The position numbers and the translations under genes were made by a program. Source: Moniliella sp. 'wahieum' (taxonomy: Eukaryota). From it: a DNA stretch of 64,000 bases. The DNA is taken from the NCBI GenBank assembly GCA_003971905.1, contig RSEE01000027.1:248001-312000 (forward strand). Direction: 5' to 3'. This document shows, piece after piece, positions 14,041-62,990 of the stretch; the stretch's first letter is position 1; every line of letters begins with the position of its first letter. Below the pieces are notes generated by a model that was not told where the DNA came from, did not search any database, and worked only from the letters and a program-made list of their open reading frames with translations.

Positions 14041-14136
14041 TCTCCCCTCTGGGAGTCGAACCCAGGACATTCAGAGCGGAAGTGACTCCACGTGACCAAT
14101 TACAATCTGACGCTCTTCCAACTGAGCTAAGGAGAG
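14041..14136 (-). tRNA. tRNA-Tyr(GTA) with intron
   Basis: CTCTCCT-TA-GCTC AGTTGGAA GAGC-G-TCAGA TT GTA A [intron] C TCTGA-ATGTC-CTGGG TTCGACT CCCAG-AGGGGAG-A, followed by a T8 Pol III terminator. Confidence 0.95.
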
Positions 14137-26417: not shown

Positions 26418-26510
26418 CTCTCCTTAGCTCAGTTGGAAGAGCGTCAGATTGTAACTGGTTGCCTGCGGATATCCGCTCTGAATGTCCTGGGTTCGACTCC
26501 CAGGGGGAGA
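26418..26510 (+). tRNA. tRNA-Tyr(GTA) with intron
   Basis: Same exons as the copy at 14041-14136 except one base missing in the 3' acceptor strand (probably a sequencing error); intron sequence differs. Confidence 0.93.
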
Positions 26511-27185
26511 TTCATTTTGCTGCCCGCTCCTTGGTGTGTGCTTGCAGCTGGCCATATTTCGTGCGTCTTGAGCTGCTGTTCCGCCTACTGGTGCTGCTTG
26601 ATATAACTAAGCTTGAACGAAGCAGAGCGTGACGCTGCCCCAGCTGTACTGCTGACAGAGCCCAAGTTGAAGTCAGCCTGACAAAAAGGCGGGGGATGCC
26701 GAAGGGAGGTGGGGCGAAGGTGGGCAATCATTTAACCATTGGGGTCAAGCGGGTGTTGTGATGAGCGCGAGGCCGGTGAGCCTGGTGAGCCGTGGGGCTG
26801 GCACTTGCTGTGCCTTGGATTTGTGGCCACCGTGGCGGCCGTCAGCGTCATCGGATGATGATTAACATTGGTCACCGATGACGGCCATCACACGTCGGAG
26901 GATGCACAGGCCAAGCAGCAGGCCTGAGGGTTAGCCTGAAGCCTTGGAAGCCGGAGGACACCACAGCGCACCTGTGCGTGGCCTGCGGCCTGCGAGTGTG
27001 GGCGCTAGGGTTGATGCCGATTATGTAACGGAAACGAGACTGCCCTCCTGCCTGCAGTGTGCCAGCTGGCAGGGCGGCGTGGGCGTCGGCAGGGGGCCGC
27101 AGTCGGGAAGGCCGGGCGTTCAGCTGGTCCGGCTGGCTTGGTTGGAAGCCGCCTTGCTCCTCTTCCTCGACCCGTCTGTATCGCC

Positions 27186-27640
27186 ATGTCTGCCCGTCTG
27201 CTCGTCCGTGCTGCCGCGCCCGCCGTCCGGGGGTCGCGCACCTTCGCCACCTCGGCGCCCAGCCGCGACATTGTCCAGGACCTGTACCTGAGCAACCTCA
27301 AGAGCTTCAAGCCTGCACCCAAGGTCAGTCTTCCTCCCCGTCATCTCTTTTTGCTGGCTCTGCCTTCCCTTTGCCTCACCATCATGTGCTGACCTTTGCT
27401 CTCCTTTAGGCCGCCGACGCGCACGTGGGCATTGTTCGCGAGTTCAGCGCGCCCAAGGCCCCAACGGCGCCGGAGCTGCCGTCGTCTTCGGCCCTCGCGA
27501 GCGAGCTGGACGCCTACGCCGCCGCTGAGCCCGACCACGCTGAACCCCCCAAGACTGAGGGCGCTACCGATGCTGGTCTGTCCATCTCGGAGTACCTCAA
27601 AGAGGCTGCCAAGCCCATTGAGTTCCACGCTGAGCACTAA
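27186..27640 (+). CDS. ATP14: Mitochondrial F1Fo ATP synthase subunit h
   Basis: Presequence MSARLLVRAAAPAVRGSRTFATS, DIVQDLYLSNLKSFKP; intron 27324-27409; DAHVGIVREFSAPKAP..PE; TAA at 27638-27640. Confidence 0.92.
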
Positions 27641-28790: not shown

Positions 28791-29154
28791 TGCGTCCAGG
28801 GCAGGGACTGTCTTTTGAAATTGGGTGTTAGCATCCGGGAGATCAAGCCTTGGGCGCCGCTTGGAACTCTGCAAGCACATGCTTGATTAGCCGGAAAGCA
28901 TCGTAGATCTCGTCACGATGCTTAGCGCCGGTAAGAACGATCTTGCCCGAGACGAAAACGAGAAGAACAACCTGCGTCCAGGGCAGGGACTGTCTTTTGA
29001 AATTGGGTGTTAGCATCCGGGAGATCAAGCCTTGGGCGCCGCTTGGAACTCTGCAAGCACAGGCTTGATTAGCCGGAAAGCATCGTAGATCTCGTCACGA
29101 TGCTTAGCGCCGGTAAGAACGATCTTGCCCGAGACGAAAACGAGAAGAACAACC
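28791..29154 (-). repeat. 182-bp tandem duplication of the TBP C-terminal coding segment plus 3' UTR
   Basis: 28791-28972 and 28973-29154 are near-identical; the visible difference changes IKPV to IKHV. Confidence 0.93.
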
Positions 29155-40808: not shown

Positions 40809-42044
<1,236 letters not shown>

Positions 42045-43479
42045 TTCTCCTCTCTCCCCGTCCCTTGCCCCCCTGCCCTCCTTCCTAACCCCCCCTGCTG
42101 TCACGCATGTCAATCCGTTTCCTCCCATTCCGATAAAGCCATGACAGACCACAGAAGGACGAAAAGCAGTCCGGCAAGTTCCCCGTACTGCTCTGGAGTG
42201 TTTGTGGTGTGTAATTGCGCGTATCCATGGGGCAGCGCCTCCATGATTGTTCAATGAACCAGCCCCAGAAAAAGGAGGCGCTGCCTACGTGTCCACCCCA
42301 AAATTGTGACAGGAGATCCATGGGAAAGCCAAAATACTCCTGTGAGGACGTTGGGAAGTGTGAGGCGAGTGAAAGGGGATGGGCAGGGCGCGGCTGAGCC
42401 AATCAGCGGTTGTTTGCGGAGAGCTACTGGACCAGTATTATCAGGAGGAAAAAAGGCTAACGGGGACGACATCTAATAATCAGACTGGGGGGCAGGTGGA
42501 GCACAGCGGCCATCGTGAGTGCCACGAGAGATGGGGGCTGGTCGGCCGCCCCTCTGGCCAGGCACCTTCAGGATGGGTAGGAGGTGGTAGGGTTGTGGTA
42601 CGGAGCGCAGGAGGGAGCAATAATGCAGCCTAATGCGATTCCTCTTCGGGCCTGTGTCGGCTAATAATATGCAGGGGTTAGCGATTGCAAAGCCTGGTGG
42701 GCCACATCTCTATTGACACCTCTTTATCAGCTTCATCACCAGCCAGCTATAGACTTGGAGTTGTCCCCCTCTCCATTTGTAAGGTGTAAGGACGCATAAC
42801 TGCTACCCCGGCGCACTTACCACCAAAAAGCGACGGCGGGACCAACCAGATCATCAAAGGAACTACATGCGCTACCATGTGTTTTCCTTTATGGGAAAAG
42901 GTCCGGCATGCGGGGTACCTTGGCCGCTGCGCAGCGCTGCTCGGACTTGAGTTTGGAGTCCGTCACAGCCCATCATGTTCCTATTGTACTGACCGCGCAG
43001 TTGTCCGTTGAAGTTATAGTTACCCACGGGAGGGGTTGTCGCCGGAATGATAAAGGCTCGACTCTCCTTCTCACCCGTTGTGGTATGCCCGCATCTGTTG
43101 TCTCATGGGATGACCGGCTGCTAGCCAACTCCTGCCCTGGGCCTTTTCATTGCGCGGCGGACACATATCTCTTGTGAGACTTCTACTCTTCGATCATTGA
43201 CTTTTCAACTTCCAGGCCCACACTCCACACCCCGTCCTTGTGAGGAACACATCGCCCCCCACGGTCACTTTTGACGCTGTCGACCGGGGGCTTACGATTA
43301 GAGGGTATTTTGCGGCTGCCCCGCTATCATTTTTGGCTCTGCTAAGCGCTAACCGTTAACGCAGAATGCATTACGTGGTCAAGCTGGGTGTAATATGCAG
43401 CACGGAGTGCACCCCCGCGATGCATCGCATGTGAAAAGCAACAACAAGGAAACGGCCCATCACACATACATGTATTGGT

Positions 43480-46140
43480 GTTGAACGTTCAACGTGTTCA
43501 ACGTTCATCGATCATCTCGCGCTCATCAAGCACTCAGTTCTCCTGCCACATTCCTCTCGGTCTCGACATATGTGTCGTGCCCTCTTCTGTTGTTGAATCA
43601 TAATATCATTCCCGTTTGTTCTCGGGATAATACTTGCACGGGTATCTTCTTTTTTCGATTGTTTGACGCTTTTTGAACTCTAGCACTACCCTCCAAGAGT
43701 AACTGTTACTGCCCACACGTGTCCTACTCCCGCCCACATGCACCGTCCTTGTCGTGTCTACTAGTTAATACCTGTCGGGAAAAAGAGGAGCTGTGGTGCA
43801 TGATGCGTTGATGCTGCTGATGCGACGTACGGGTTTGACGTTCGAAGAGTTTGAAGCTTGTAGCCCTTGAATCTTGAAGAGAGGCTTCTTTTTCCCGACG
43901 ATTGATGATCGATGAGGTCGATAATCGATAAGGCCTAAGGCCTAAGAAGTCTGTCATATCGAATTAATCATTCAATTGGAGATGGCGTTTACAGGGATGT
44001 GGAGGACTGGTTGAAGCCTCGGACAATAAAATCAACGCCAGGCCGGTGACAGTGACATGTCATAAGGTGAAGCGACGAAGCGGTGTAGCTTGAAGAGTGA
44101 AGCTTGAAGTCGAGGACGAGAGCCAAAACGCAGGCGTCTGCCTTCTGCCTCATTAACCTCATTAATCATTTGTTTCATTGATCTCAGACCTCGATCTCAC
44201 TAGGTCACTAGCACTAGCACCAGTCACCTAGTCACCGCACCTGTGACATGTGACGCGTGACGCGTGACGCGTGGAGATCATCGGTCATATCATCGATCAT
44301 CGATCATCGACCACTCGATCGCGTCACGCGTCACGTTCAGGAACCTCGGGGTCGCAAGGGGCCGCAACAGCGCTGCATCAGTGCATCAGCGCTCAGCATC
44401 ATGCATCATGTCTCAGATATCAGGTGGCAGAGCTGCAGCAAGCTTCTGCTTGCTTCTGCCCGCGCGCTCGGCCAGCTAATGAAACAGAGCGTAGCGTACT
44501 TGAGTACCTCGGAACGCGTGATTATCTCGATTATCTCGAGTACCTAGTACTAAGGAATGATGCATGATGCATGATGATCGATGATCGATTGATCATTAAA
44601 TTTTAAATATTAATATTTAATCATCGATCATCGATCATCGCCGCCTTAGCCTTATCGATTATCGATTACCGGGATTACCGATCCCAAAGGATAAAATCGG
44701 CTGAAATGGCCTGCACTTTTTACCTCAGCTGCCCCGTGACACGTTCGCAGCCACCCGCACCCAGAGTATCGGTGATATTATTTGCCCTCTCCAGCGTGGA
44801 AGGGTTCCAGCGTGGAATGGTGGACCAGGGGACCGGTGGCTAAGGTGGCGAAGGGGACCGGTGGCTAAGGTGGCGACGAGGGGGAACGGTGGCTAAGGTG
44901 GCGACGGGGGAACGGTGCTAAGGTGGCGACGGGGGAACGGTGGCTAAGGTGGCGAGGGGGAACGGTGGCTAAGGTGGCGACACAGCAGACCGGGCCGTAG
45001 GCCCGGTGGTCTTCTCGTATCGATTAATGTCGATCAGGACCTGTGCCTCCGCGCTAGTGAATGCAAGTGACTAGTGATGCATGATGGATCCGGACCTCGC
45101 GGGCTAGTGACTATTCAGTTGAATATTGACTACAAAGGTACTGGCGATAGCACTGGGGTAACTCCTAGTTAGATCAGTGTCCAGGTGACTGCACGCGAGC
45201 CTTCTTTTTGCCCGACGGGGGTTTGCCGCGTTTTGCATCCATCTGGGGGAACAGATTCTGAAATGCACCCAATTCAGATCTCAGGACCTCAGATCCCTCA
45301 GACGGCTCGGTCCATTAACATGATTAACAATTGACGTTTAACGTTTAACGTTAACGTTTAACGTCTAACGTACTTAACGTTCAACTAAGTACATGCAGGT
45401 ACCCGCTGCAGAGCTGCAATACCGAAACCACCCCATATAAACGTGACACCTGTCACATGCCAGGTGAAGCCCTCACAAGCTGGACCCTACTGGGCCCTGA
45501 CTAGCACGCCCCCAAGGAGGACGCGTCTAGCGTGACGCGTGATGCGCGTGACGCGGGACGCGTTCTGAATTTGGGATGTTGTTTACCATGAGGCACGCGT
45601 CGTCCCATGGATTTCCGGTAACTGGTAACCGGTAACCAGTACCCTAGTAAACTAGTAACCCTTAACCAGTACCCGGTACCCAGTTTTCGTCAACGTAGTT
45701 AACGTTCAACGTTCCACGTTCCACAGGCTATACCGGCTATACGTCTTCCATGCTCAACTGTTAACGTTATTAGCCTGTTCGTGTCACTGCATGTCACATG
45801 TCACTAGCCACACAAGTCACTAGTCGCTATAGTCACGATAGTCACTTTGTTCCCTTGGCAACGTTTTCAACGTCCAAAAATGTCCAGCACACATTAATCG
45901 TGTTCTCAACGTGTTCAACGTTCCCGTTGTTTGCCTAGTTACTTGTTAAACGTTAAACGTTAATTAATAATTCGTGAAGAGCGTGAAGCTTGAAGCTTGA
46001 AGCTTGCAGAGCTTCAATAAGCGCGTGTCCTCAAAAGCTTCAATATATTCAGTGAATGGAGTCTCAATCGTCCCTTTTTGACTATAGTCACCGTGTAGTC
46101 AGCTGAACCGATCGACAGTGGGTGCTAGGTGCTAGCCCTC
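43480..46140. repeat. Mosaic of 7-bp-periodic (TNA + 4-bp palindrome) micro-arrays
   Basis: Examples: TAA-TCGA-TAA-GGCC-TAA-GGCC-TAA (43922); TGA-CATG-(TGA-CGCG)x3 (44244); (TCA-TCGA)x3 (44290); (TGA-AGCT)x3 (45984). Confidence 0.85.
44776..45018 (+). mobile_element. Helitron-like non-autonomous element with internal minisatellite; 5' end uncertain
   Basis: Six ~25-bp repeats GGGGAACGGTGGCTAAGGTGGCGAC (44828-44981), then hairpin ACCGGGCC-GTA-GGCCCGGT (44989-45007) and CTCG|T 6 nt later. Confidence 0.45.
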
Positions 46141-46806
46141 AAGTCAACAGGGTGTTGCAGGTAGGATACATGATCAATGATTCCCCCGGAGAGTGGAGGT
46201 CGGAGATGCAAATAGGAAGACACAAAACGCACTTATTATGGACCGAGCGAGGCGGTCAGTACCTCAGCGATAAAACCTTGTCGGGTGGAATGCCAGTCTG
46301 ATGTGCCGGAGAAGAACAAGAATAGAATAGGTACGACCGGAGGCCCAAAATTAGACAGACTGGAACCTTTGATGGGCATGAGCGCGCGGGTACAGGTGAG
46401 TGATTGCCGCCCGGAGGATAGGTACGTTGGGCCGGGGATAGCAAAGTAAATGGAGGGAGGGGGGGGGACTACAAATTATAGGCCCGATGGGTAGATAGAG
46501 GGGGACTGCTCATCAGCAAGGAATGGACGGAGTAGAGCGACGAGAATAGGAAAAGGAATCGTTCTGTGAGCAGAAAATACCGGAGGAAGGCGAAAACTGG
46601 GGAAAGAAAGAGGTGCAGAATGCAAGGGATGAAATACTGAGGGCATAATGCATAACGGGAGATCAACGAGGGGGGAGGTGAGAGTGTGGGGGGGCTCCCT
46701 TTTTGGTAGTAGCAGCAATGCGACGGACGCCAGCGAAGGTGGGAAATGTACGGTGGGACCGAGGTGTGGATGGCAAGTCGCGGAGGGGGACGTTCAGCGT
46801 GGGAGC

Positions 46807-48236
46807 TTAAACCACTTGGTCCATGCGTGAGGTAAGTGAAAGGGGAAATGCTAGAGGTGGTGCTTTGCCGCGGGGGAGCCACTCGTGGTCCATAGCCACG
46901 GAAGAAGGAGTGAGAACAAAGCTGCAGCCGCCATGAGAGGTGGAGGCAGAGGAGGAAGCCCGGGACCGTGGAGCTCTTAGTCCAACGGAGCTGGCCGAGC
47001 TGTCGACCGAACCGCGACCCTGCGAGGGGGGTAGCCGCGATAAGTTTGGGGGCCAGTACATTGATGGGCTGGGTTGCGCCTGTGCAACCGGCGAATAGTC
47101 CAGTTGCTCCAGTGCCGGCATCAGGCTGGGGCCATGGGCCTGCACAAAAGACTGGCTCGGTGGCTGGCTCTGGATGCAGGTCGAGAGAGAGGAACCGGTT
47201 GAAGGGTGCATGACATCCAAGTGAGAGGATGGGGCGGGTGGCAGGCGAACGAACTGGGGATGGCCGAATGCGACCCCGGCGGGCGAAGAGGCGAAGAGGA
47301 GGAGCGGGAGGAGCGGAGTGACAAGCGGTGCTACCCAACTCGCCTTGGTTGGCGACGGCTCAGGTGTCAACGCTTTGGACCCTGATTCCGGGGCGAGGCG
47401 GTACGAAGTAGGCGGGGTGAGGTCGGAGTTGGGTGCAGTGGGGCGGGGGGGGATGTAAAGGGCCTGGTCGAAGTAGCCCTGCTCCAACAGCTTGGCAAAA
47501 CATAGCAGTTGTTCCGCTGGTACATTGACTCGATACCCCAGAAAACTAAACAGCTCTTGCTCCATAGTGTTGATGTCTTTCAAACTGAAAACACCTTGTC
47601 CGACAATGGCCCACGACTTGTTCGAGTAGGTATCGTCACACAATGCCTTGCTCGACAACATTAACGCCGAGATGAAAAGCCTGTGTCCGCTGGAACCCCG
47701 GGAGGAAGGAAAACGTTGTTTGAGCCGCTTGAGGAGATAAAGAGCTTGGTACACGACCAGCGTTGGCAGACGGGTACGGTGCAGAGCATACGCGATAAAC
47801 TCCACCAATCGAGGCGTTTCCTTACATGGGGTGATACTTGATCGCGACCGGACTGTTGACTCTTGAAATGGGCCAACGGGTGGCAGGAGAAAAGGGCGGT
47901 GATAACCACCTCACACATCTCGGACAGAGCACGGAAGCCATACAAGTTGCTGATGTCCCTTCTTGGAGCGTCAAGTGTGACAGGGGGAGCGCCTGGGCCA
48001 AGGTGTGGGCCGAAACAAATGGGCACCGTACGCTCCTCAGGCTCCGAATCGGTTTCGCTCTTGGGTTGCGAAGAATGGGGCGAAATGAGCGGGGGTTGGA
48101 GGTGGGGTGGATGGTGAGGTGGGGCGAGGACTGGTGGGAAAGGCAGGGAGGCGAGACAGGATGCAGCCCTTGGCCGTGAGGCTTGGGCGGGGGGGATGGC
48201 TGGGCCGTTGGTTTGGACATGGGGATGAGGGGGCAT
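46807..48236 (-). CDS. Pho85-type cyclin (Pcl/Clg1-like)
   Basis: Cyclin box LVEFIAYALHRTRLP...ALYLLKRLK.RFP...GSSGHRLFISALMLSSK.LCDDTYSNKSW.IVGQG.FSLKDINTMEQEL. ATG 48236; one frameshift near 47815. Confidence 0.9.
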
Positions 48237-48789
48237 AGTTGTGAAGAGAACAGGGGGATAAGAGCTGCGTGGTGGTGGGGGTAAGGTAGGAGTACTGTGA
48301 AGCAAGCCGGTCCAACTGTCCCGAAAGAGAGGCCAAGCACAGCTAGCTAATAACAAGCAAAAACGCTAGTACCTGGTAGCCTGGGTTGTCCGTTTGGGCC
48401 GTGTGTCGGGAGCGTTGGCAAGTGTTCCAACAAGGCTGACTTGTCCGCTTGAGCTTGAGCTTGAGTTTGCGTTTGCGCTTATAAGCGTCTCTGCTGCGGC
48501 AGTAGCAAGGTGCGCCAGCGGCTGAGGCGTCGGGCACAGTAGCTGGATGGGGGAGGTCGGGGTGCGGTTGGTGCAGATGGGGATGAAGGAAGGGGGGGCA
48601 GAAGGAAGCCAGGAAGAAGAACGATGAGCCGGCGGTGGCGGTGGACGGGTGGATATATGCCACGGTGCTTGGCCCTAGCGGCTGGCTTTCGCAGGCTTCG
48701 GCGGGTCGGCGGTGGGGCGGGTGGCGACAGACTGGTGACGCGTGACGGGTGAGCCGACTGGTCCACTGTGCCTTGCGGCTGAAATCAGG

Positions 48790-50300
48790 CATCTGAGATC
48801 ACCAATCACCGATCTCGATCACTGAGATGGAGATCTGACATGCTGAGACCGACGACCCTGTCCCGCCAGGTATCCAATATCTAACCGCCCATCCAAGAGA
48901 ATGGCTTTCATTCCAGTGGGGCGCAGCGGGCCGCATGCCTCGGAGAAGCATCTTTTCAGTGGTTTCGTGTCGCTCTAGGGCCTACGTGCCACCCGCCTCT
49001 GCTCTCCTCTGGGATCTAGCGCCTAGCCCCAACCGTCCGCGTCACGTCACAGTGCCAGTGACCTAGTGACCGGTGACCGGTCACCCGGTCACGGTGACCG
49101 ATGATCGATGTCGTTGAGCGTGGGAAGTGGGACATGTAACCGGTGACCGGTGACCCTGAGGAGGCCTGAGAGTCTGGCGGGGTCCTGACTCAGTACTCAG
49201 TACTCAGTACACTCAGTACACTCAGTCTGAGTACTCAGTCTGAGTCCCTCAGGCATGAGATCACCGCTCCAAGCCTGAGCACCTGAACCTGAGGCCTGAC
49301 AGTCTGACGCGTGCGCCTGAGGGCCTCAGGCCTCAGTTCTGGCTGCTATCCGAAGATCCACCTGCCTGAGGCCGCCTGATCTGATCGATCTGAAGCTTGA
49401 AGCTTGAAGCAAACGTAGTTGGCAAAGCTTGAAGCTCGTGACCGGGACTAGGAACTGCCCGTCACGCGTCAAGGTCCCCCTCAGATCAGACCTTCAGGCT
49501 CAGATAACTTGGTCGCATCCCCAGTATCCTTCCCCTTTTCCTACCCATGCTCGAGATGCCAAGGGAGTACCGATAATCGATAATGGCAGAGGTGGCCACA
49601 AAAGCACAGCTGACTGCCCAGCTGCCCACCACAGAATAGAATTGTGTTGCCTACCTACAAGGTACGTTAACCCGTTCTACGCAGTATTACATGTTACATA
49701 CTGATCCGTTTACTCCTGCCGACTTCTGTCGAATATCAACGTTTCAACCGATGGAGGATCTGCCAGCACCGAACTACACCCGAACTTGAAGCCTCGAGCT
49801 TGAAGCTTGAAGCTTGAAAAGTCAGTTAAAAGTAACGCCTAAAAACGTGACACGCTGAACGTTAAACTTAACGTTAATTAATGAGGCCTAAGGCGCAGGC
49901 CTAAGCTGATGTGGATGTTAAAAAACGCTAATGCTTAGAAGGCCACACTGTTCCACCACCGTTCCATCTTCATCGCCACTTTCATTAGCCCCCCTCTTCT
50001 CACCGTCGCCACCGTCGCCACCGTTGCCCCGTCCACCACTGTTAGGCCTTAGGGTTGAATTTAGCTTAAGGTTTATCCATCATCACCGTGGAGCGTCATA
50101 TGGCAGCGCCGGCGGTGCGCTGTGTATACGTGTTATTGGTATAGTTCGGTCAGAAAACTTGCAAACGACCTCTCGTCTTATAGACGGCGAACACATTGTT
50201 TGGGCCCTGGAACGAATTAACCACTGAGTACTGAGTCTCAATGGAGAGTTCAAATTGTTGAACGTTCACCGTTCAGACGTTCAGATGTCTGCCACGTTCA
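48790..50300. repeat. Second mosaic of (TNA + 4-bp palindrome) micro-arrays
   Basis: TGA-CCGG-TGA-CCGG-TCA (49067); (TCA-GTAC)x3 (49190); (TGA-AGCT)n (49391, ~49800); TTA-ACGT-TAA-TTAA-TGA-GGCC-TAA (49868). Confidence 0.85.
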
Positions 50301-51112
50301 TTCGTATCCACACGCGCTATACTCTCAGCTCTCAGGTATGAAAACGGATGGCGGGTGTCAGAGGGTCCTGTTCGATGATCTACTGATCCTGGGTTCCACA
50401 CGCCGGATGAACAGGTGTGTTTAGACGCAGTGTTTCTTTGTCCAAGCCTTACATGTTACAGCTCAAGGCTCAAGGGCACAAGCTCTACTGTCAATGATAT
50501 GGCTGCGCCTGGCAGGAACCCTCTGAAAAATTCTATCAAAATACACCGATTTCTTTATTAGGGCTTAATGTTGTTACATGTTGGTAGGCAGAGGTTTTAT
50601 TACGGCCCGTTGAGACCAACTTCGCTCCGCTTTTTAGCTTCATCGCCACCACACAATGCCCACCGCCGCCCTGAAACACGTATGTGGCGATGCAGCGCTA
50701 AGCTGAGGCCCTGAGCCTGGCTCAACGTAGGTTCATGTATGCATGATGCTAGTCCACTACGTGCCCCATTTCGTACGAGTCTCTTGCCCAGGCAGCCACT
50801 GAATATCAGCCACGGGGCCTGGGACGGCGCGTCCTGGCTCACCGTGACGCGTGACGTATAATGGAGATGCAACCGGTGATTGGTAAATACGGTGTCACCG
50901 AATGACTAAGCTCGCTCCAATTTCCAATTCCGCATCCTGTGTCTCTCGCTCTTCCCTTCCCTTTTGCTTCTGTTCTCTGCCTGATGCCTTCTGTTTCCTC
51001 CCACGAACGATCTTGCCTTTCCCCCCGCCTCTGACAGGACCTTGGTCTCCCTCGTTTAGCCCCGACTGTTACATTATCGTTCGTCAACCCCAATCAGACG
51101 AGCCCGACCAAG

Positions 51113-52476
51113 ATGTCCGCGACCCCCGACCAGCAGAATCTCAGCAACCCTACCAGTAACCCCCCCGTGCGCCGCAGTGGCCGTTACGCATTGGATGCCT
51201 CGGATGATGGCGGCGATGGCGGCGGTGCTGGCGGTGGCGAGGAGGGCAGAATGGTACACCCCGCCGCTCCGATGGCCCAAGACCCATCTTCCATGGCTGG
51301 ACCCCCCGCTTCTGCAATCGCGCTGGACGAGTTGAATGATGCTCGCGCGGCTCGTCGGCTGCAGGCGGAGAAGCTCCGCGAGGAACGGGCCTACGAGGCC
51401 GAGAAGATTCGCGACGACAATGCCCACGAGGCCGAGAAGATTCGAGTCGATCGCGCCCACACTCAGTTCCGGCGGGAGGCCATGCTGGAGGAGAAACGGG
51501 CGGAGGCTGCAGCGGCTGTTGAGATGCTGCAGCTCTCACAGACGGCAGAGCAAGCGCGCGCTGCTGCTAGCGGTGGTCCCGCCAACGTGCAAGGCCCCGC
51601 CCTTTCCGCCTCCGAGAGCGCCCCGTCCCAGCCGGCACCCGCGTCTCGCGACCTCAAGATGTTCGAGCCTGTCCATTTCCGTCCGTCCTCCAGTGCTCAC
51701 CCCAGCAAGAGTGACCGCATCTCGGCTGAAGAGGTCGTTACTTCCTTTGAGATCTACGCCCGCGTCGCCCTCGGTCGCCACGTCGACGATGCGGAGAAGA
51801 TTGACCGGTTCATGGGATTGATGCAAGGCGAGGCGCTTCGGTGGCTCCGGCAGTACGGGTCGGAGCCCGAACTGCCGTTGGCTCAGCGCACCTCCCCTGA
51901 CCTCCAGTCGTGGCCTGCCTTTCGGACTGCGTTTTTGACCGAATGGGGTGAACGTAACCCGCAGCAGTCAGCGTATGTGGAGTATCGGGCGCTCACTCAG
52001 ACCGGGTCGGCTGCCGACTATGCCGCTCAATTTGTGCGTCTGCTGCGATGCTGGAGCCCCAATGCCCCTCATGAGCAGTACATTGGGACTTTCTGTATGG
52101 GCTGAAACCCAAGGTGCGAGACGGTCTTGCTGCTCGTGGTGAGTCTACACACGTCAATCGGCTGTCGTTTGAGCAGCTGCGCACTGCGGCCATCGATATC
52201 GACGAGTCCCAGACGTTGGGTATGCGCGGCGTTAGTAGGGCTTCTCAGGCTCCGAGCGGGAGCCAGTTTTTTCGGCCCTCGCCGGCCGAACCCGAGCCCA
52301 TGGACCTTAGCGCAGCCGAGGCGCAGGCCACAGAGAGAGCAGCACGATATCGGGAGCGCAGGGCGGAAGGATCCTGCTACTGTTGCGGCTCCCGTGACCA
52401 CCGCATCGCCCGCTGCCCGCTTGCCAGCTCGCCCCCGCCTCAACAGTCCGACTCCTCCACGGCTGGTGCTGTCTGA
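51113..52476 (+). CDS. gag: Gag (capsid + CCHC zinc knuckle)
   Basis: G.A..W, W..F...F..., LTQTGSAADYAAQF, FLYGLKPKVRD (after a 1-bp shift near 52080), PEPMDL, CYCCGSRDHRIARC. Confidence 0.9.
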
Positions 52477-55400
52477 GGCGGCCGTCGGGCCCAGTCGGCC
52501 TTCGCCTGGTTCTTTCACGGTACTTGTTCACTTGCGCCCTGGTTCTTCGTCCTCGTCCCCGTCCCCAGCTCCGATCCCGGTTCTTGCCCTGATTGACTCT
52601 GGTGCCAACAGCGTCTTTATGGATCGTGTCTTCGCTCACCGACACGGCCTGCTTGCCCATCCGCTGGAGTCGCCCTTGTCAGTCCGCGTAGTTGACGGAC
52701 GCCCCATCTCTTCGGGTCTGGTGACCCGGGCGGTGGAGGCATCCGTCGCGGTCGGCTCGCATGTGTCGACCGAGGAATTTTTCCTCACCTCCCTCCACCA
52801 TCCCTTGATTCTTGGCCTCCCCTTTCTCGAGGCCCACAACCCTTCCACCGACCCTCGCACACTTTGCATTTCGACAAACCGCAGTGCCGCGAGCATTGCC
52901 AACCCCAACCCAGCACCAGCACCAGCACCAGCACCAGCACCCGCCCCCGCACCACCAGCACCAGCACCAGCACCAGCACCAGCACCAGCATCTCCCCAAC
53001 CAGTTCCCCCCTCCCCCACATCCGCCGCAGTCCCCCTCTCAGCTTCCGTACCAGTCTGTGCCTCCACCTTCAAACCAGTCCCCCCTCCCCAAGGTACGCG
53101 TCTTCGCTCCTCACCTCCGGTACCACCCCTTCCCAGTCCTCCCTTCCCCTAGCGTGCCGATTGACCTCCTTTCCTTGGAACAGTTTGAAGGAGAGGTGGC
53201 CGCCGATCCCACACCGAGGTATGCGTTGCCCGTCCCAGTGACCCAGCTTTGGTCATTTCGTCTGTTTCCGTTGCAGAGGGTCCAGAGCCAGTGTTCCCTG
53301 ACGAGTTTGACACCCCGGAGTATGTCGACCACGTCCGGAAAACGGTGCCTACCCGCTACCATGCCTATCTTGATGCCTTCTCCAAGTCTGGCGCCAAGAC
53401 GCTTCCCACCCATCGTGCGGCCGACCATTCGATCGACCTCGTGCCCGGCGCTACTCCCACCTTCACTCGTCTCTATCCCCTCTCTACGGGCGAGATGGAT
53501 GCCCTGGGCCGTTGGATTGACGAAAATTTGGCCTCTGGGTTCATTCGCCCGTCTAAATCGCCGTTTGGGGCGGGTGTTCTCTTTGTTAAGAAGAAGGATG
53601 GCTCGCTCCGACTGTGTGTAGACTATCGTGCTCTCAACTCCATTACCATCAAGAATCGTATGGCCCTCCCCTTGATTAGTGACTCGCTCGATCGCTTGTC
53701 CGGGGCTCGCGTTTTTACCAAGCTTGACCTCCGTGGGGCGTACAACCTTTTGAGGGTCAAGGAGGGCGATGAGTACAAGACGGCTTTTCGTACCCGGTAT
53801 GGTCACTTTGAGTCGCTCGTCATGCCGTTCGGTCTCTGTAACGCGCCCGCCACTTTCCAAGCCATAATGAATGATCTCCTCCGGGACTCCTCGACGTCTC
53901 GGTGCTGGCATATTTGGACGATATTTTGGTATTCTCGTCGGACGAGAAGGCACACGAGGAGCATGTTGCCGAGGTGTTGCGGCGTCTGCAGCGCGCAAGG
54001 CTTTACCTTAATCCGGACAAGTGCCAGTTCCACACATCCCAGACTGAGTATTTGGGCTATGTCGTTTCGCCCACGGGGATCGGAATGGATCCTGCTAAGG
54101 TGGAAGCGATCAAAGCATGGCCGACGCCCAAGACCAGTCGCCAAGTTCAGGTGTTCCTTGGGTTTGCCAATTACTATCGCCACTTCATTCGCTCCTATGC
54201 CCGCATTTCGGCACCCCTTTCCGACCTCACCCGCAAGACACAGCGGTTTGATTGGACGCCTGCCTGCCAAAGCGCCTTCGACGACCTCAAGAGGGCCTTC
54301 GCTTCTCCCCATGTCATTTGCCATTTTGACCCCAGTCGGCCACTCCGCATTGAGACTGACGCATCGGATGCCGCCTTGGGTGCCGTGCTGGCCCAGCAGG
54401 ACAAACATGGTCGTTGGCGGCCTGTCGCCTTCCATTCCCGCAAGCTTGTCGCAGCCGAACTCAACTATACCACGTCTGAGAAGGAGGTGCTTGCCATTGT
54501 GGCGGCCGTCGAAGTGTGGCGCCACTATGTTGAGAGCGTCGATACGGTCCAGGTGCTTACGGACCACGAGGCGATCGCTACCTTCCGCCGGCCGCGCCTC
54601 CTGAACCGCCGGCAGGGCCGGTGGCGTCAGACCTTGTCGCCCTACCGGTTACTCATGGTGTATCGCTCCGGGACGAAGAATGCTGCCGCTGATGGCTTGT
54701 CCCGTCGCCCCGATCTTTCCATCGGCTCTCGCCCTGCCGAGGCTGCCCCCCAGACCCTGCTGGAGCCTGTCTCTGAGCGTTCGGCTGCTGTGCTCGAGCT
54801 CATGTCCACTCAGCCCGACGCGCCGTTGGTGGCGCGCTTGTCGGCCGACGAGATCCAGCAGCGCATCCGCGACTTGGTGCCCCGCGCCCCCGTTGGGCCG
54901 TTGCGATCTCCCCGCGACCCCCCCCTCATGCTCTTACCGTTCGCGATGGCTCCTGTGGCATGGGGAGCAGATCTATGTCCCCCCGATGCCCTCTCCGCGC
55001 GGCTGTCCTTTTCCAGGCCCACGACTCCGCGCTGGCAGGACACGAAGGGCGGGACAAGACTCGGTTGCGTGTGCGGTCGCAGTATTGGTGGCCCCGCCTG
55101 TCGGCCGACGTGTGGGCATATGTGCGCTCTTGCGACCGTTGTCAGCGGACCAAAGTGCCGCGGCGTCCTCCCGCTGGCTTGCTTCAACCCTTGGCCCCAC
55201 CTCAAGGCCCGTGGACTCATTTAACGATGGATCACATCACCCAGCTTCCACCCTCGAAGGGGTTCGATGCCATCTTGGTCGTGGTGGACAGGTTCACTAA
55301 GATGGCGCATTTCATTCCTGCCCACACAACGGACACGGCGCCGCGGCTTGCCCACCAGTTTGTTCACCACGTTTTCCGCTACCATGGGTTGCCGCGCGAC

Positions 55401-56344
55401 TTGGTCAGCGACCGTGGTCCTACCTTTACGAGCCACTTTTGGAGGGCCCTGTGCAGTGACTTGGGCATCCACTCGAGCCTCAGCACGGCGTATCACCCCC
55501 AATCGGACGGGCACGACGGAGAGAGTGAACCAGGTGCTCGAGCAGTACCTTCGTTGCTACCTGGATGAGCAGCAGTCAAACTGGATTGATCTTCTTCCCA
55601 CGGCCGAGTTTGCTTACAACTCTTCTCCCCACTCCAGCACAGGCGCGTCCCCCTTTTTCCTTACGTATGGCTACTCGCCCCGCGGTGAGTTGGCGGCTGC
55701 GTCGTCGGCCGTGCCGGACGCTGCATCGTACCTCGAGGGCCTCCGCTCGGCCCAGGCCGTAGCTCGGAAGACGCTGGCCGCTGCCCAGGAGCGGTATCGG
55801 CACTACGCTGATCAGCATCGCACCGAGGCCGACACCTTTGAAGTTGATCAACCGGTTTTGGTTCGGCGCGATGGCTACTTCTCCACCCAACGTCCCTCCG
55901 ACGGGTTGGATTATCGCTACCTTGGTCCCTTTCCCATTGTCCGTGCTGTCGGACGTGCTGCGTACCAGGTTCGCTTGCCTGATTGGCTTCACATTCACGA
56001 TGTGTTCCACCTCTCCCGGTTGCGCGCCTATAGCCCAGGCGACGAGGTCTCTAACCGCTTGGTCGAGCCCCCTCCCCCCCTTCCCGAGTATGCCGACGGG
56101 GGCGTTCATCACGAGGTCCAAGAGGTTCTTGACTCCCGCCGTAAGGGTCGCGGTGGACGTCTCGAGTACTTTGTCCATTTCCGAGGCTACCCGGTCCACG
56201 AGCGGGAGTGGGTGCCAGCCGCGGACATGTCCCACGACGCCGACCCGGTGGTTCGTTTCCATGCGATGTACCCGACAAGCCTGTTTCCCGCTCCCGTCGC
56301 ATTGCCCTTGCCCGCCTCCTCCGAAGCCGGGGAGGTGAGGTCTG
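52477..56344 (+). CDS. pol: Pol polyprotein (protease, RT, RNase H, integrase, chromodomain), with frameshifts
   Basis: [62 protein letters not shown] (H..AGH..CDRC); [37 protein letters not shown]. Confidence 0.93.
52910..52990 (+). repeat. (CCAGCA)n microsatellite encoding (Pro-Ala)n between protease and RT
   Basis: Two runs of CCAGCA, in frame with the protease ORF (PAPAPA...). Confidence 0.9.
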
Positions 56345-56699
56345 AAAGGGGGCAATGTCACCGAATGACTAAGCTCGCTCCAATTTCCAATTCCGCATCC
56401 TGTGTCTCTCTCTTCCCTTCCCTTTTGCTTCTGTTCTCTGCCTGATGCCTTCTGTTTCCTCCCACGAACGATCTTGCCTTTCCCCCCGCCTCTGACAGGA
56501 CCTTGGTCTCCCTCGTTTAGCCCCGACTGTTACAAACGGCAGCCGGGGTACCCTGTACCCGGAAACCAGAAACCTTTGGCGAATAAGAGAAGCGGAACCT
56601 ACCCCCAAAAACCCCGCCAGCCACCCCTCCCCGCTGTTCTTTGTTGGAAGTTGGACCTAGCTGTCCCGCTTAGCCTGACAGCGACGCGCGCCCTCCGTC

Positions 56700-57070
56700 T
56701 TTGTTCAACGTTCAACGTTCAACGTTCAACGTGTTCAACTGATTTGTCGATCTGTTTGAGGAGATGGGGTCGGTCAGCGCTGCTCAGCGCTGAGGCTCAG
56801 CGCTCAGGCCGCCAACCGGGCACACGTCGTTTTGACGTGTTGACGCCGCGGATGCCGAACATTGGGCACATATTCAGCTCGCAGACGGTTGTTTTCCCAG
56901 ACGGTTGTCTAGCGGTGGACACATTGGTCGGCCGGGGGACTGTCGAATACATTGTATCTGAAACACGCTCTCCGTCTTCACGTGCATCACGCGTGATGGT
57001 CACATGTCACATGTCACATGTCACTGTCACGGTGCCTGACGCGTAACGCGTAACGCGTGTAACTAGTTAC
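56700..57070. repeat. Third (TNA + 4-bp palindrome) micro-array cluster
   Basis: (TCA-ACGT)x4 (56705); TCA-GCGC-TCA (56797); (TCA-CATG)x3 (57000); TGA-CGCG-TAA-CGCG-TAA (57037); TAA-CTAG-TTA (57060). Confidence 0.85.
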
Positions 57071-60000
57071 TCCGGTTTCTCGTCCCGGCACTGCCCCGAC
57101 CCCTCCGTCACTCCCTGCTTGGTGTGCCAGTGTGCCGCGCACGCAAACTCTCCGTTTGGTGGCAACGGGATGCTTCACGTGTTGTCTGGTGCTGGTCGCT
57201 ACAGGGTTACCGGTTATGCCTCCAGCTGCTCTGCATGCTATACCCTGCTATATCGACCACTGACGATCACAGGCATCACATCCCACATTCTACATGGCAC
57301 GGTGCCAAGAGCGGTGTATATACCACAGAAGCCTCTGTCGGCCTATACCAGCCGGCACTTCCTGTACCTCGTTCAACATTCACATATTCACATGTTCACA
57401 CAGGTCCATACCAGAAGATAGACTTCAAGCGTCAAGCTTCAGCTTCAAAATGCTTACTATTATACCGTGGTCGCCACTCGCGCGGGCCATCGCGCAAGAA
57501 TACACCGCCCCACCCGAAAGTGATGGCATAGTGACATATTAGCCATGTCGGCACTGCCTTGATGGACCCATGACGAGGGCCCCGTGTCTCCACCCAGCGC
57601 CGACCGAGACAGACTTTGTGGCCCACGTGCCGTGCCTGGAACGGATGGCCTGGCGAGTATTAGCGCTTAGCGCACTAGTGCATTTTAGCGCATTAGCCAT
57701 GTTTCGTCCCTTTGCGGCCGGAGCCAACGCGTCTTCACGAAAGCTTCCCGCATGCCAAGAGGCTCGAGTCCTGCCGGTCGAGTTCGACTGTGTCAACTGT
57801 GTCTAGACCAGGCTACCGCAACCCACACGCGCCTTCCTGGAACAAAGGTCCACTCCTCCTTCCGTCTCGCTCCACGCCGTTGCCGCCGACATCTTGACGG
57901 ATATAGTAACACAATGCCTTTTATGGCACGGCCTGGTATGCTGTTGGACGGTGCATCAGGACAAATTTTCCCGCTCTGTATGGGTATTTTCCCCTCGCAC
58001 TAAGAGTCTGAAGTCGCTGCCATGTCGTGCTGTGGTTCCCCCTCAAATGGCTTGATCGCGCTTTTATGCGCGACGACTCGTCTGTTGTGCAGAGTTATAA
58101 TAGGATGACTGATGGTGGGGCCAAATTCAAGCCCCTTTTCGCAATGGAGTGGCCGAGGCTTGAGGGCAGCGCTCCGGTAGCGCTCCCAAGAGCATGATCC
58201 CGCCGCCATTGAAGCCTTAGAGCAACCCCCGCGTCTTGGCACGCGTATCTCGGCCCTATCTCTCGACTCTGATCATGGATCATGGCCGAGGACGTATGAC
58301 CACAAAGGACGCCGGCTACTCTCGGTTCTGGTAACAATCGCATCGCCAATGATACTCTCCCTGACCTTCCCCCTTTCGTACAGCTTCGGGCGTCCTTACG
58401 GCACATCATCCTGATTCATCTCCCATTTGTTGCTCTGCTATCTGTTTTGCCAGTGGCACAAAGGCCTCATGACGGAAACCGAAAAGGAGGGCATCCATCT
58501 CGGATACGAGATATCCCCTCCTGTTACTGAATCTCATCCGCGTTCATCGCGACGAAGACCGCTGGGTCGATGTCAATGACTGCAGCCTTTCTTTCCTGTG
58601 CGCCCACCTTTCGTGGAAGGTGACGACGAAGACCGCCACCGTCTCCTTTGCACCGCAGCCGGAGGTCGCCGACCCCGAATTTATTCTTCAATACAGGCCA
58701 AACGCATCGCACCTATGATCACCCCCATGTTCGCCAGTTTCGTCTCCGAAGCTGGGCAAATTGTCCCTCCCCCCTTTGCTGGTAGTGGTAACATTGATGC
58801 ACCTTCGGTTCCACCAGCCCATCAATTGGGCTACGCGATGGCCGCCAATAAGGGCATATGGCCCCTCTGAATCTCCTAACTTAATCTCCTCCTTCTTGCT
58901 GTCGAGGGTTAGTAGGGAGCTTCGTGTAGTAACGCGATTTGAATATGTGGTCGAACGATTTGGCGCCCTACTGGTGTACATTGTTATTGCATTATTACGA
59001 CCTGTGAGCATTATGTTCGCATCATGTCGATGTGGCCTTGCTCTCCGGAGGTGTACCAACCGTCAGAGTCATCAAGTATAACGCGCGCACCGCCACTCAC
59101 GGGGACTTGTAGCCTTTGTGACCGCATTTTTGGCTTTGCATCCTCCATATTTTCTCCCCTCCCGACTAACGGCTCTAATGTGTTCGTCTCTCGCGAGTAT
59201 GAAAACTTTGGCTTCTTTTTCCTGAGAGCTCTTTCGATTGCAAAAGGCGGCCTATAACCTCTCGGCTCTGTCGAAGGAGGACCTTCATTTGTCCCCCCAC
59301 CTAAGGCTGATGAGAGGTGCCGCATATGGCCACTAAGCGGGATGTCTACGGTCGCACACAGTCCGGACGTGCCTGGTCCTGCTATATTTTGCCAAAATCT
59401 TACCTGATGAGAGCGTGCTGAGTGGCATCCCTTTTCTAGCAACACATCGCTAGTGTTGAACGAGCCTTGTCTCGTGCCTTGCTCGCAACGACATTTCCAG
59501 CCCTAATACTGGTCGTGTCATTTTATGGTCAAGTTTCCTTTTTTGGTAGTCCCTCTTGAGGCCAAGGTGTTGGCTCTGATGTTTTCTTACTTCGGTTTTC
59601 CATTTTGTTCTTCTGCGGGCAGACCCCGTGACGCCTGGCTTGTAGTTGTCCCTGTAGGCGTAAGTGGCTGGTCTAGAGACCACCCTAATCACCATCGAGA
59701 GGCATATCAAAGCTGCAAGTCTCATCGTAAAGCCCCCACCTGATGAGGAAATGTGAGGATCGAGCGTGCATCCCAAAGGGAACATATCCCCTGTGGGACA
59801 GACGTCTCGTGGCCTTGATTGCTTGAACGGTACGTTTTGCCGCGTTGCGGTTGCGTGTGGGTGTGTTCGAGAGAGAGTCATCATCCTCATCAGCGACCTA
59901 TACATTCTTCCGCGCTGGATGCGGCCAGCAAGGGATGACAGCGACGGCGCCTGTTTTCAAAAAAGATCCATGGTGGCTGGCTGGGCTATGGGAGACGCGT

Positions 60001-60680
60001 TGCTAGCGCAACGGCTTTGAACATGTGGCGCCAGGGGGAGCGGTTCAAACGTTCAACTTCCGTACATGGCACATGGCACAGCGCGTTTGCACGTTCAACT
60101 TGAACGTTCAATATTCAAGCTCAGCCGCGGCTTGGCACGGCAGGCACTGCTCGGCAGAGGATGGAGTTGTGGCAGTTGTGGCCCCGGGGCCGAGGGAAGC
60201 CAGCGAAGCATACGCACTGGCGCCCTGCACAGACGCACTGCGTGCTGAGTACCTGGGCTGGCGCCCCGCGCAATCCAAAACAACACGACACTGCCCCCGG
60301 GCGGCGGTGCACACTCCAAGCAGCGCTGGGCGCTGGCTGGTTCCTTGCAGCCGCGCGCTGGAGCGCATGCATGGTGCATGACATGCATGACATGCATGAC
60401 ACTGGCCAGGGGCGGCGGCATTACTTGGCGACGGGCGACATGTGGCTGCCAGGGCCAGTGACACTAGTGACAGCGGCCGATGAGGTGAGCTCACCGGTGA
60501 CCCCCCTCCAGGCGAAGGCGCTTCGGGCATAAAACTTTTAGTGCTCCGCCGGAGCAAGCCGCAGCCGACGCAGACAGCACAGACACCACGACACCCCAGG
60601 ACAACCCCGAGTGCTTGCTTCTCGGCCACCGCCACCGCCACCGCCCCTCGCTGCCTCCGCCACACTCTGCTCCGGGCAGC

Positions 60681-62990
60681 ATGCCTACCGACGTAGGCAC
60701 CAACCAGGATGGCGAGCCGGTGCCATCCGCTCACATGGGTGGGTACTCCAGCCTCACGGGCGCAGGCGAATGCAACACCACAATGGCTATCCGTGATCTG
60801 ACCTTCTCCCCCCCTTCGCTTCGCCGCAGGCAACCTGACGCCCGAGCAGTCGCTCAAGCTCCGCCAGTTCTACACCAAGCTCCACCATCTATCTCGCCAA
60901 CACCTCGACGTCTCCGACGCTCTCAAGCGTCGCGGCGGCCCTGCTGCTGTGCCCAAAACAGAGCGAACCCCCGCTAAGGCCACCAAGCCTTCCCGCACCA
61001 CCACTCCCGCCGACGACGGCGCTAAAGACGATGCCAAGCTCCACGCCGAGCAGCGCCAGATGGATGTATTCCTCCGCACATATGGCGGCGACTACCTCCG
61101 CACTGCATTTTACGATTTTGTTCAGGTATGTCCCCCCTCCGCTTTGCGCATCCTTTGTCCTCAGACCTGCAACCGACGCGTGGCACTCTTTTTCTCCTTC
61201 ACAGGCCGACTATATCGATGCCTCGGCCCTGCGCTTTCTGCGCGCACGCAAGTGGGATGTAGATCGGGCCATCGCCATGCTGTGCTGCCATCGGCTTCCG
61301 CCTGGACAATGATCTGATGGGTTTGCTGGCCCAAGGCGAGAATGGGTTGAAGGATGTGCCCGGGTTTCTCAACCAGATGCGTCGTGGCATCTCCTATGTC
61401 CGCGGCAATACCGACTCGCCAGGCGAACACCCACTTTACTTTATTCATGTTGCGCGGCATTATGCCAACGCGCAATCGTCCGAAACGCTCGAGCGTTTCG
61501 TCCTGTTGGCCATGGAAGCCACCCGACTGCTATGCAGTCCTCCGATGGAAAAGGCTGTCGTTGTCGTTTTCTCTCTGGAAGGCTTTGGCATCAGAAACAG
61601 TGCGTTCCTTTCTCCTTTGCTTCGTCTTCGTGGCCTGCCCCACTGACTATCATGGTGCCTGTCTTGCAGTGGATTGGAACTGTGTTACGTTCCTTGTGCA
61701 ATGCCTTGAGGCATATATCCCGAATCGTTGCATTGTATCTATGTCCATGGTGCTCCTTGGATCTTCCGTGGCATCTGGCAAGTCTCTCTCCTATGCTCGA
61801 CCCCGTCGTGCGGGAGAAGATCAAGTTCACCAGCAAGGCACAGGATCTAGAGGCGCACATTCCTTCCTACAAGCTCCGAGTTGCTATGGGTGGCACCATG
61901 GACTGGGAGTGGGACTACACCGAACCTGATCCTCGCGAGAACGAGTTACTTGAGCGCACGGACATTGCTGATCGTATCCGAGCCGAGCGTGACGAGCTCT
62001 GGGCCCAATTTGACAGGTTACGTTCGATTGGTGCCAAGCCGCGTCGGACGAGGCGGTTCCCGAGCTGACGTTCCGCCGACTCGTGCTCCAAAAACAGATC
62101 CGCCTCAAGCAGCTCCAACTGAACCTTACGTTCGCGCCATCAACGTCTACCAGCGTCAAGGTATCCTGAATGAAGCCAACTCCCATACATGGAAGTACCC
62201 TCAAGCCAATGCACCCGCTCTTAGCCAGACCGTGGGCAGTCGCCATGACATCCCAGCGTTGTTCCAATGGCTCGTGGACAATAAGCAAGACGTCTTCCTT
62301 GACTCGTATGGAACACGTTTTGGGGCTTGCGGCCTTGCCCGCCCACCCGAATTGATCCCAAGCTGGGTGCACAAACATGGCGGACCCGTCCCCATCCCTG
62401 CCTTGGCTACTAATCCCTCCTGCAACCACCCCGCCCTCGCCCCCACCGCCACCACACCACCACATCGACTATCGCCCCTCCCCGCCAGGGCTCTGTATCG
62501 CTGGCTCACGCTTCGTCCACCTCTACCGCTGCCGCGCCATCACAACCTCCTTATAAGGAGACGTTCTTGCCAAAAGAGGACGCCGCCGTTGCAACGATTG
62601 CATCGGCAACTGCTGTGGCGGTCGATTCAACTGTGAACGGACTTTCTCATACTGCCTCTCGCTCTTCGTCGGACCTGTCAATTGTATCAGGGAACGAAGG
62701 GTATCGACGACGCCTGAGTATGGGTATGGGGAGGTGGACATGTAAAGAGACTGGCGGAAGCAATGCCTGGCAACGCAATGATTCCTTCTTGGGCACCGAT
62801 CGGTCAGTGTCCCGTTCCGAGGTTGATGAGAGCTTAGCCGATTCAATTTTGGCTCACAGTGCCGCTTACGGGAGGAGGAGGAGGGTATCGAGTCGAGTGG
62901 GGAGGAGTCGATCGGCACGGACGCCATGTCAGACGACTCAGATCCGCCTACGACGTCTGTGCGACCGGATACATCCCCACCACAAGCCAC
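60681..62990 (+). CDS. CRAL-TRIO/Sec14-like lipid transfer protein (Csr1/Sfh2-like) plus low-complexity linker; probably the N-terminal part of a fused gene
   Basis: HM|GNLTPEQ (intron ~60739-60830); D..ALRFLRARKWDVDRAIAML; FLNQMRRGISYVRG; FSLEGFGIRN|.DW; LEAY.PE..; HGAPWIF; LDPVVREKIKFT; MGG..DWEWDY.EP...EN. Confidence 0.88.

Follow-up and report, generated by a model that had tools for sequence, protein, structure and literature searches.

The window analysed here is a 64,000-nt stretch of eukaryotic DNA with introns of the fungal type. We identified a dense cluster of short palindromic units at 48790-50300, upstream of a PHO80/Pcl-type cyclin gene on the minus strand (46807-48700). The initial annotation had called the adjoining gene a cyclin and placed the cluster upstream of it, and a Pfam Cyclin_N match on the minus strand agrees. 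The gene is frameshifted in the assembly and its start codon is undefined. Its best named relatives are proteins of Ustilaginomycotina (Jaminaea, Thecaphora, Violaceomyces, Tilletiaria) with 65–72% identity. A protein kinase gene on the plus strand ends near 42030, making the gap between kinase and cyclin (42030-46800) convergent, that is, tail to tail (3'-3'). On the other side of the cluster lies a 5.6-kb Ty3/Gypsy element on the plus strand (50893-56534), followed by the rest of a divergent gap (56535-60680) that extends to a CRAL-TRIO gene on the plus strand beginning at about 60680. A search of 42000-61000 with Rfam at the gathering threshold returned no matches.

The Ty3/Gypsy element has matches to gag, protease, RT, RNase H, SH3 and a chromodomain, and is itself frameshifted in the assembly. 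Its LTRs are 98.9% identical and it is bounded by a 5-bp duplication with one mismatch. The element sets a further unit at 56726 apart from the 48790-50300 cluster, and before its insertion the two clusters would have shared a single divergent gap of about 6.3 kb. This Ty3/Gypsy family is also represented by a solo LTR on the minus strand at 8661-8835, which has an exact 5-bp duplication. An older LTR-like stretch at about 21400-21540, the end of which is similar to the Ty3 LTR by eye, is absent from the self-BLAST list.

The units consist of two TNA trimers on either side of a 4-bp palindromic filler (TNA-pal4-TNA). The 48790-50300 cluster contains 23 such units with 9 different fillers, compared with 0.24 ± 0.51 expected (200 dinucleotide shuffles, maximum 3), as well as variants with 8- and 9-bp periods. 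The whole window contains 111 units compared with 7.7 ± 1.9 expected (30 shuffles). All 16 palindromic fillers and all four N are present among these, and the N composition of the units tracks the background of TNA sites. Analogous units built on ANT, CNG and GNC do not show a comparable palindromic excess (1, 23 and 37 in the window, with 7.8, 26.8 and 27.0 expected).

One part of the cluster is an array at 49057-49091. It combines a full 7-bp duplication carrying one inverted base (49057) with a direct CCGG unit (49067), and it also has a unit of 8-bp period (49081) and a flipped unit (49074), in which the second N is complementary to the first. Two further CCGG units follow at 49137-49153, the first with a transition at N. 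The GTAC array at 49188-49237 has two 7-bp units, two 9-bp units (a 7-bp duplication plus two inverted bases) and one flipped unit (49228), and at 49290-49335 there are GGCC units at 49290 and 49326 with a flipped unit of 8-bp period at 49318. AGCT arrays of two units each are found at 49391-49407 and 49801-49817. Between them (49462-49696) three units stand alone (49462, 49574 and 49687), and in each the template is a single flank. ACGT, TTAA and GGCC fillers stand in phase at 49856-49891. Two units of this run (49868 and 49875) cannot be derived in one step from the sequence that now flanks them, and stacked events with later substitutions would account for them. A lone GGCC unit is found at 50042-50051, and the far end of the cluster overlaps an old dispersed repeat on the minus strand (50208-50506). 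The strings that had been quoted as examples are all in place: TGA-CCGG-TGA at 49067 and 49144, TGA-CCGG-TCA at 49074, TCA-GTACAC-TCA at 49204 and 49213, and TCA-ACGTGT-TCA at 56726, with the in-phase run of three fillers at 49868-49891 as described.

Units are absent from coding DNA and otherwise strongly clustered. There are none in the cyclin gene and none at the 171 TNA sites of the Ty3/Gypsy element. The convergent gap holds 47 units and the 56535-60680 gap holds 18, including the one at 56726. Expressed as units per kb, the density is 11.9 at 48700-50892, 9.9 in the convergent gap, 8.3 at 18.6–19.8 kb, 4.3 at 56535-60680, 3.6 at 8.3–9.7 kb and 0.14 at 19.8–27 kb.

The position of the units would suit selected cis-regulatory sites for the cyclin and its neighbours, such as bZIP-like TGA/TCA half-sites or nucleosome signals, in that the units are intergenic and 26 of them lie within 2.2 kb upstream of the cyclin gene. 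However, all 16 palindromic fillers and all four N occur, the filler tracks the local flank and not a consensus, and the density is about as high in the tail-to-tail gap. We consider regulatory selection a very unlikely origin of the units, and individual scars could have been co-opted as regulatory sites. A cause specific to the cyclin gene was ruled out by the similar density in the 3' tail-to-tail gap and by the other clusters in the window. The pattern is neither cyclin-specific nor promoter-specific, and the cluster is probably incidental to the cyclin gene.

The initial annotation had attributed the clustering to accessible intergenic chromatin that is hit repeatedly and expands. Open chromatin may be a cause, and local hopping and self-seeding would account for the clustering equally well; a link to the chromatin of this one gene finds no support. 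The expansion is real, but modest. A strict iterative parse of 48790-50300 removes 20 stacked events amounting to 147 of the 1511 nt (9.7%), compared with at most one event in 20 shuffles. This share of about 10% is a lower bound, and most of the region is not recognisable scar. In the synteny comparison no close relative was found; the best locus, with 71% amino-acid identity, is on a 2.5-kb contig.

The cluster had also been described as failing to align with the first cluster at 43–46 kb. Self-BLAST gives no long alignment between the two, but they do have a short minisatellite in common. This G-rich minisatellite is found at 22280-22850, at 44800-45010 and, in reverse orientation, at 49930-50040, and by eye two of the copies are followed by an identical 16-nt GC-rich word. 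It may be what is left of the subterminal part of an old mobile element resembling Helitrons or CACTA elements.

The repeat at 50208-50506 is a diverged, inverted copy of 18492-18756, with about 74% column identity over approximately 270–300 bp and a local score of 163 (maximum 42 in 30 shuffles). Both copies border a scar cluster. They have the unit at 50225 in common, which is therefore older than the copying. The 50-kb copy has extra sequence at TNA arrays that the 18-kb copy lacks (about 50245-50280, 50320-50330 and 50445-50485). Examined by eye, one of these three differences parses cleanly as an 8-nt unit (50271) and the other two are ambiguous at this level of identity (about 74%). The pair includes no allele occupied by an element.

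Because the assembly contains many single-base frameshifts, among them those in the kinase, cyclin, CRAL-TRIO and TBP genes, the units might be suspected of being a sequencing or assembly artefact. However, they avoid coding DNA and the Ty3 element, one unit is common to two diverged paralogues, and later substitutions are present within units. An artefact therefore has the slimmest of chances. Frameshifts in conserved genes are located in the kinase (41000-42030), cyclin (46800-48700), CRAL-TRIO (60680-62300) and ATP synthase h (27000-27640) genes, and the TBP gene is likewise frameshifted. They point to uncorrected single-base assembly errors, and as a consequence some units may be hidden.

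The 111 units chain into 84 arrays, and the filler is a copy of the flank. Outside the arrays, the period continues on the better side for exactly 2 nt in 40 of the 84 and for at least 2 nt in 70, and on the other side it continues for 0 nt in 51. From this one-sided continuation of 2 nt it follows that the basic event converts wz-TNA-xy to wz-TNA-xy-y'x'-TNA-xy, or the mirror image. Periods were counted in six cluster regions chosen by eye (9972 nt), which contain 116 same-N pairs at period 7 (7.7 expected), 30 at period 8 (8.4 expected) and 39 at period 9 (7.8 expected). The fillers between same-N trimers are palindromic in 89 of 147 cases at length 4, 9 of 30 at length 2, 3 of 76 at length 6 and 0 of 38 at length 8, and 5 of 46 odd 5-mers are palindromic. 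Since palindromic fillers are enriched at length 4 only, the centre of the palindrome is fixed 2 nt from the A of the trimer.

The longer units are full 7-bp duplications with 1–3 inverted bases. Among non-palindromic 7-mers duplicated with 1–3 nt between the copies, these intervening bases are an inverted copy of the flank in 14 of the 16 cases centred on TNA (a figure that counts one array twice), as opposed to 5 of 29 cases centred on ANT, CNG or GNC. Duplications that stop exactly at 7 bp on both sides are found at 44222, 45287, 45314, 49057 and 60457. The putative target duplication is 7 bp long and reaches 2 nt past TNA on each side, with N free. The initial annotation had emphasised that imperfect units with longer fillers keep complementary edges. 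Such edges, 2 nt long, are present in 9 of the 39 six-base fillers of the cluster regions, but they are a side effect and not the rule. A 4-bp palindrome at one end is found in 23 of the 39 six-base fillers, including 8 of the 9 with complementary edges, and in 19 of 30 five-base fillers, compared with 4.7 and 3.6 by chance. This is the general rule, of which complementary edges form a special case, arising where the target was a palindrome from the outset.

Templated units number 73 at TNA compared with 0 at ANT, 0 at CNG and 1 at GNC. This specificity bears on an origin in which a host polymerase switches template during replication or synthesises a fold-back, the nascent strand copying 2–3 bases backwards and realigning on the upstream T of TNA. 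Such a process could yield the main 7-nt product and occasional flips without any element, and a large number of transpositions would be unnecessary. However, it should work for any X-N-X' triplet and any arm length, and only TNA (73 versus 0, 0 and 1) and only the 2-nt arm are seen. The full 7-bp duplications with inverted spacers from either side are also left unexplained. Template switching is largely excluded by this specificity, and we regard it as a distinctly improbable source of the units.

We tabulated N before and after the filler. It is the same in 89 of the 111 units of the window, complementary in 14, changed by a transition in 7 and by another transversion in 1; for the 23 units of the 48790-50300 cluster the figures are 15 the same, 4 complementary and 4 transitions. 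The initial annotation had supposed that neighbouring N are related and that direct and inverted units coexist in the cluster. The first is borne out by the 89 of 111 identical pairs in the window, and the second by the 15 same-N and 4 complementary-N units of the cluster. Point mutation should yield the two transversion classes about equally, yet complementary pairs exceed other transversions by 14 to 1 (p=0.001), and the flips are thus real. Seven of the eight pairs that are neither identical nor flipped are transitions (TGA/TAA or TCA/TTA; units 45374, 45699, 49137, 49856, 49875, 49882 and 57037), and these would fit a C-to-T change in CpA context after scar formation.

For non-palindromic targets on both strands of the six cluster regions, we classified products as (k,m), meaning the target plus k inverted bases plus the target minus m bases. 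The +2/+3 class occurs at 54 sites and the +4/+5 class, which comprises the flips, at 7, and (2,1) and (2,0) occur at 9 sites each. The classes overlap, and the null means are 0.0–0.1 for all of them. The counts lie on or below the diagonal, with (2,2) equivalent to (3,3) and (4,4) to (5,5), the latter giving flips; such a distribution would be expected from the joining of two hairpins opened at an equal offset. Since flips arise at (4,4)/(5,5) of the same event, a separate process is unnecessary, and they fit a minor class of that event with a longer inverted tract. Flush products account for 80 of 147 and Ac-like products with a 1-nt offset for 0 of 147, with about 0.6 expected per class. 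The flips and complementary edges had originally been read as favouring a fold-back or hairpin intermediate. The data do support a hairpin intermediate; what decides the matter is the flank templating (70 of 84 arrays, and the inverted junction bases), not the flips.

Considering these features together, the arrays are probably footprints left, one upon another, by the excision of a cut-and-paste transposon. Such a transposon would duplicate a 7-bp nnTNAnn target, and its flank hairpins would be flush, of the RAG/Transib/MULE type, and opened approximately 2 nt past the tip. The element, its enzyme and the order of events are putative. The element would insert at wz-TNA-xy and duplicate those seven bases. 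From the geometry of the junctions, the excising transposase would then nick flush at the element ends and seal both flanks as hairpins, similar to RAG, Transib and the MULE Muta1. A host nuclease would open the hairpins, mostly 2–3 nt past the tip. In the end joining that follows, the strand left long on one flank would be linked to the strand left short on the opposite flank. Where the two hairpins are opened equally, the net gain would be 7 nt in the form TNA-xy-y'x'-TNA, with the same N for openings at +2/+3 and a flipped N at +4/+5, and unequal opening or trimming would give the 8- and 9-bp periods. Each scar would add a new TNA and a palindromic 7-mer, so that repeated hits and slippage could build arrays, and local hopping together with selection against coding hits could produce the clusters. 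If this reading is right, the intergenic DNA, with 111 units in 64 kb, is a very large natural sample of healed hairpin breaks. Such a sample would reveal where a fungal hairpin nuclease opens its substrate and how the ends are joined, for comparison with Artemis in V(D)J recombination. Transposon traffic would also create microsatellites and lengthen intergenic DNA after the departure of the element, and the duplication length would point to a transposon lineage outside the published CMCT range.

Insertion followed by excision through flank hairpins leaves a junction flanked by a duplication, with inverted bases at the centre, as established for hAT, Transib, RAG and MULE elements according to the available text of PMC5499845. 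The arrays show two marks of hairpin-type footprints: junction bases that are inverted copies of the adjacent flank, and a duplication of fixed length around a preferred site. The even-centred palindrome at the duplication end corresponds to the flush type of RAG, Transib and MULE. Several observations count against the footprint reading, among them the differences from Ac/Ds, Muta1 and CMCT elements given below and the single clean parse among the three paralogue differences. Plain duplications lacking inverted bases are not enriched at TNA (5, compared with 3, 6 and 8 in the other classes), and the number of events implied, approximately 1.7 per kb, is very large. We found no TIR element with a 7-bp TNA-centred duplication in the window, where the search returned array look-alikes and one weak pair spanning genes, and no convincing inverted ends in six non-coding regions of the window. 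No DNA-transposase Pfam match was obtained among the sets of 34, 150, 147 and 17 ORFs scanned, which are part of the 479 stop-to-stop frames of at least 70 amino acids.

The same products might be made with no mobile element at all, by a host or domesticated transposase-like nuclease that makes a 7-nt staggered cut at nnTNAnn, after which the ends are filled, hairpinned, reopened and joined. Such an enzyme would suit the absence of the element from this window, the very stereotyped products and the weak version of the signature in distant fungi. However, both ends need the 7-mer before hairpinning, and insertion followed by excision would provide it in one known pathway. We consider the host nuclease unlikely.

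The invariant TNA core invites comparison with PIF/Harbinger transposons, whose target is TNA/TWA. In footprints of this type the TNA would be a 3-bp duplication and the filler the remnants of element ends. Canonical Harbinger duplications are 3 bp long in the available text of PMC12730594. The filler, however, matches the flank and takes all 16 values, and consequently an origin in fixed element ends is impossible; in addition, the duplications reach 2 nt past TNA on both sides, which does not fit a duplication of 3 bp only. PIF/Harbinger footprints are therefore an extremely improbable source. Element ends of any kind were ruled out as the source of the fillers, which follow the local flank.

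Footprints with P nucleotides are already known as a kind; the geometry here is unusual and stereotyped. One of the close likenesses to the excision footprints proposed above is with V(D)J coding joints, in which RAG hairpins are opened by Artemis:DNA-PKcs. As described in the accessible parts of PMC2175297, P nucleotides there form an even-centred palindrome at the flank end, as they do here, and Artemis most often cuts the hairpin 2 nt 3' of the tip, with a range of 1–4. The dominant +2 opening gives a 4-nt palindromic overhang, and the range from +1 to +4 matches the direct and flipped classes. In contrast to V(D)J joints, both ends here carry a 7-bp TNA-centred duplication and the events are heritable and scattered over the window. 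Furthermore, the inverted bases are mostly kept here and mostly lost in coding joints (PMC2175297).

Footprints of Ac/Ds (hAT) elements in plants, budding yeast and Candida albicans are likewise hairpin-derived palindromic insertions at a healed donor site (PMC5873905, available text). However, a hAT palindrome has as its centre the complement of the element's neighbouring base and is odd-centred, whereas those described here have an even centre. The same source reports 28 footprint types among 128 in Candida, and the footprints here are more stereotyped. An offset geometry of the hAT type was ruled out, with 0 of 147 Ac-like products and no enrichment of odd palindromes. The hAT7 elements of rust fungi (Pucciniales), as presented in the accessible parts of PMC12730594, are basidiomycete DNA transposons with a 7-bp duplication, as here. 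As members of hAT they are expected to leave odd-centred palindromes, yet these are not seen.

The MULE Muta1 makes a flank hairpin of 43+43 nt without a visible offset, similar to the geometry here. Unlike the units described here, it has an 8–9 bp duplication and more than 90% precise excision in yeast, and the 7-bp duplication falls outside the 8–10 bp range of MULEs (all from the available text of PMC5499845). The CMCT clade (EnSpm/CACTA, Plavaka, ESTA and Transib) contains Transib, the source of RAG1, and occurs in basidiomycetes; its duplications of 2–5 bp are shorter than the putative 7 bp here (PMC12730594, accessible parts). The related comparison with CNEST of Cryptococcus neoformans gives a TA duplication versus 7 bp (PMC12810828, available text). 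No footprint data for CMCT or CNEST elements are given in the available portions of PMC12730594 and PMC12810828, and those of PMC4824034 contain no footprint data either. A literature search, with most subscription papers and figures outside its reach, returned no description of the TNA-palindrome rule.

We also searched metagenome stretches for cyclin-core matches and analysed the best 80 of 284 confirmed loci (526 kb). Among 33 named proteins, the nearest one is from an Agaricomycete for 79 of these best 80 loci and from a smut relative for the remaining locus. Flank-templated same-trimer units at TNA number 24 in the best 80 of 284 loci, or 8.4 per 10,000 sites compared with 1.2–2.5 for nine other trimer classes; the corresponding density in the window is 285. 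The TNA excess is uneven. A group of 11 loci (the L025 group) has 12 units compared with 1, 2 and 0 in other classes, and 35 unclustered loci have 8 compared with 1, 1 and 1; the L052 group has 3 units and a 23-locus group has none. Mushroom-like cyclin loci with a low density of units include L025, L026, L030-L032, L036, L038 and L046, and also L044, L057 and L080.

In the L025 group, the units L032:3425, L032:5584, L025:6513, L025:20238 and L036:18450 are 7-nt insertions relative to orthologues. L046:432 is not an indel, and the remaining units align too poorly to say. Three of the five insertions differ from a plain duplication by one transition only. In an unbiased indel survey across the whole set (the best 80 of 284 loci), 7-nt indels do not stand out (68, 71, 53, 48 and 45 indels for 5–9 nt), and the strict rule fits 1 of 53 de-duplicated 7-nt indels. 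Full 7-bp duplications with an inverted spacer are not enriched there (4 of 23), and the best 80 of 284 loci yielded no TIR element bounded by a TNA-centred duplication of 7 bp. We regard a weak version of the grammar in some mushroom-like loci as a lead.

A broader proposal is more speculative, and on balance we doubt it. An undescribed fungal transposon lineage, related to RAG/Transib and similar to CMCT elements, may duplicate 7-bp nnTNAnn targets and leave scars like V(D)J coding joints. The arrays would then record, in dense fossil form, how hairpins were opened and ends joined in this smut-related fungus, with a fainter mutational signature in several mushroom lineages. The scars would also give rise to heptamer microsatellites, among them possibly the Ustilago maydis 10-bp repeats. 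The Ustilago maydis repeats have been suggested to be TE footprints (PMC4081816, accessible parts). They are numerous, short and intergenic in a smut fungus, the unit here also spans 10 bp, and the two may share a grammar.

Several other features of the window were recorded. The TBP gene contains an internal 182-bp tandem duplication (28791-29155), and beside it a 1.15-kb near-triplication is found at 29472-31996 with 96–99% identity; both may be real or a long-read assembly artefact. Two similar tRNA genes at 14041-14136 and 26417-26511 are 88% identical including flanks and apparently contain introns, and one of them was called Leu(TAA). At about 24840-25400 a small spliced gene with a signal-peptide-like start can be discerned by eye. 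The piece of it that was scanned has no Pfam match, and its product presumably resembles expansin-like DPBB proteins.
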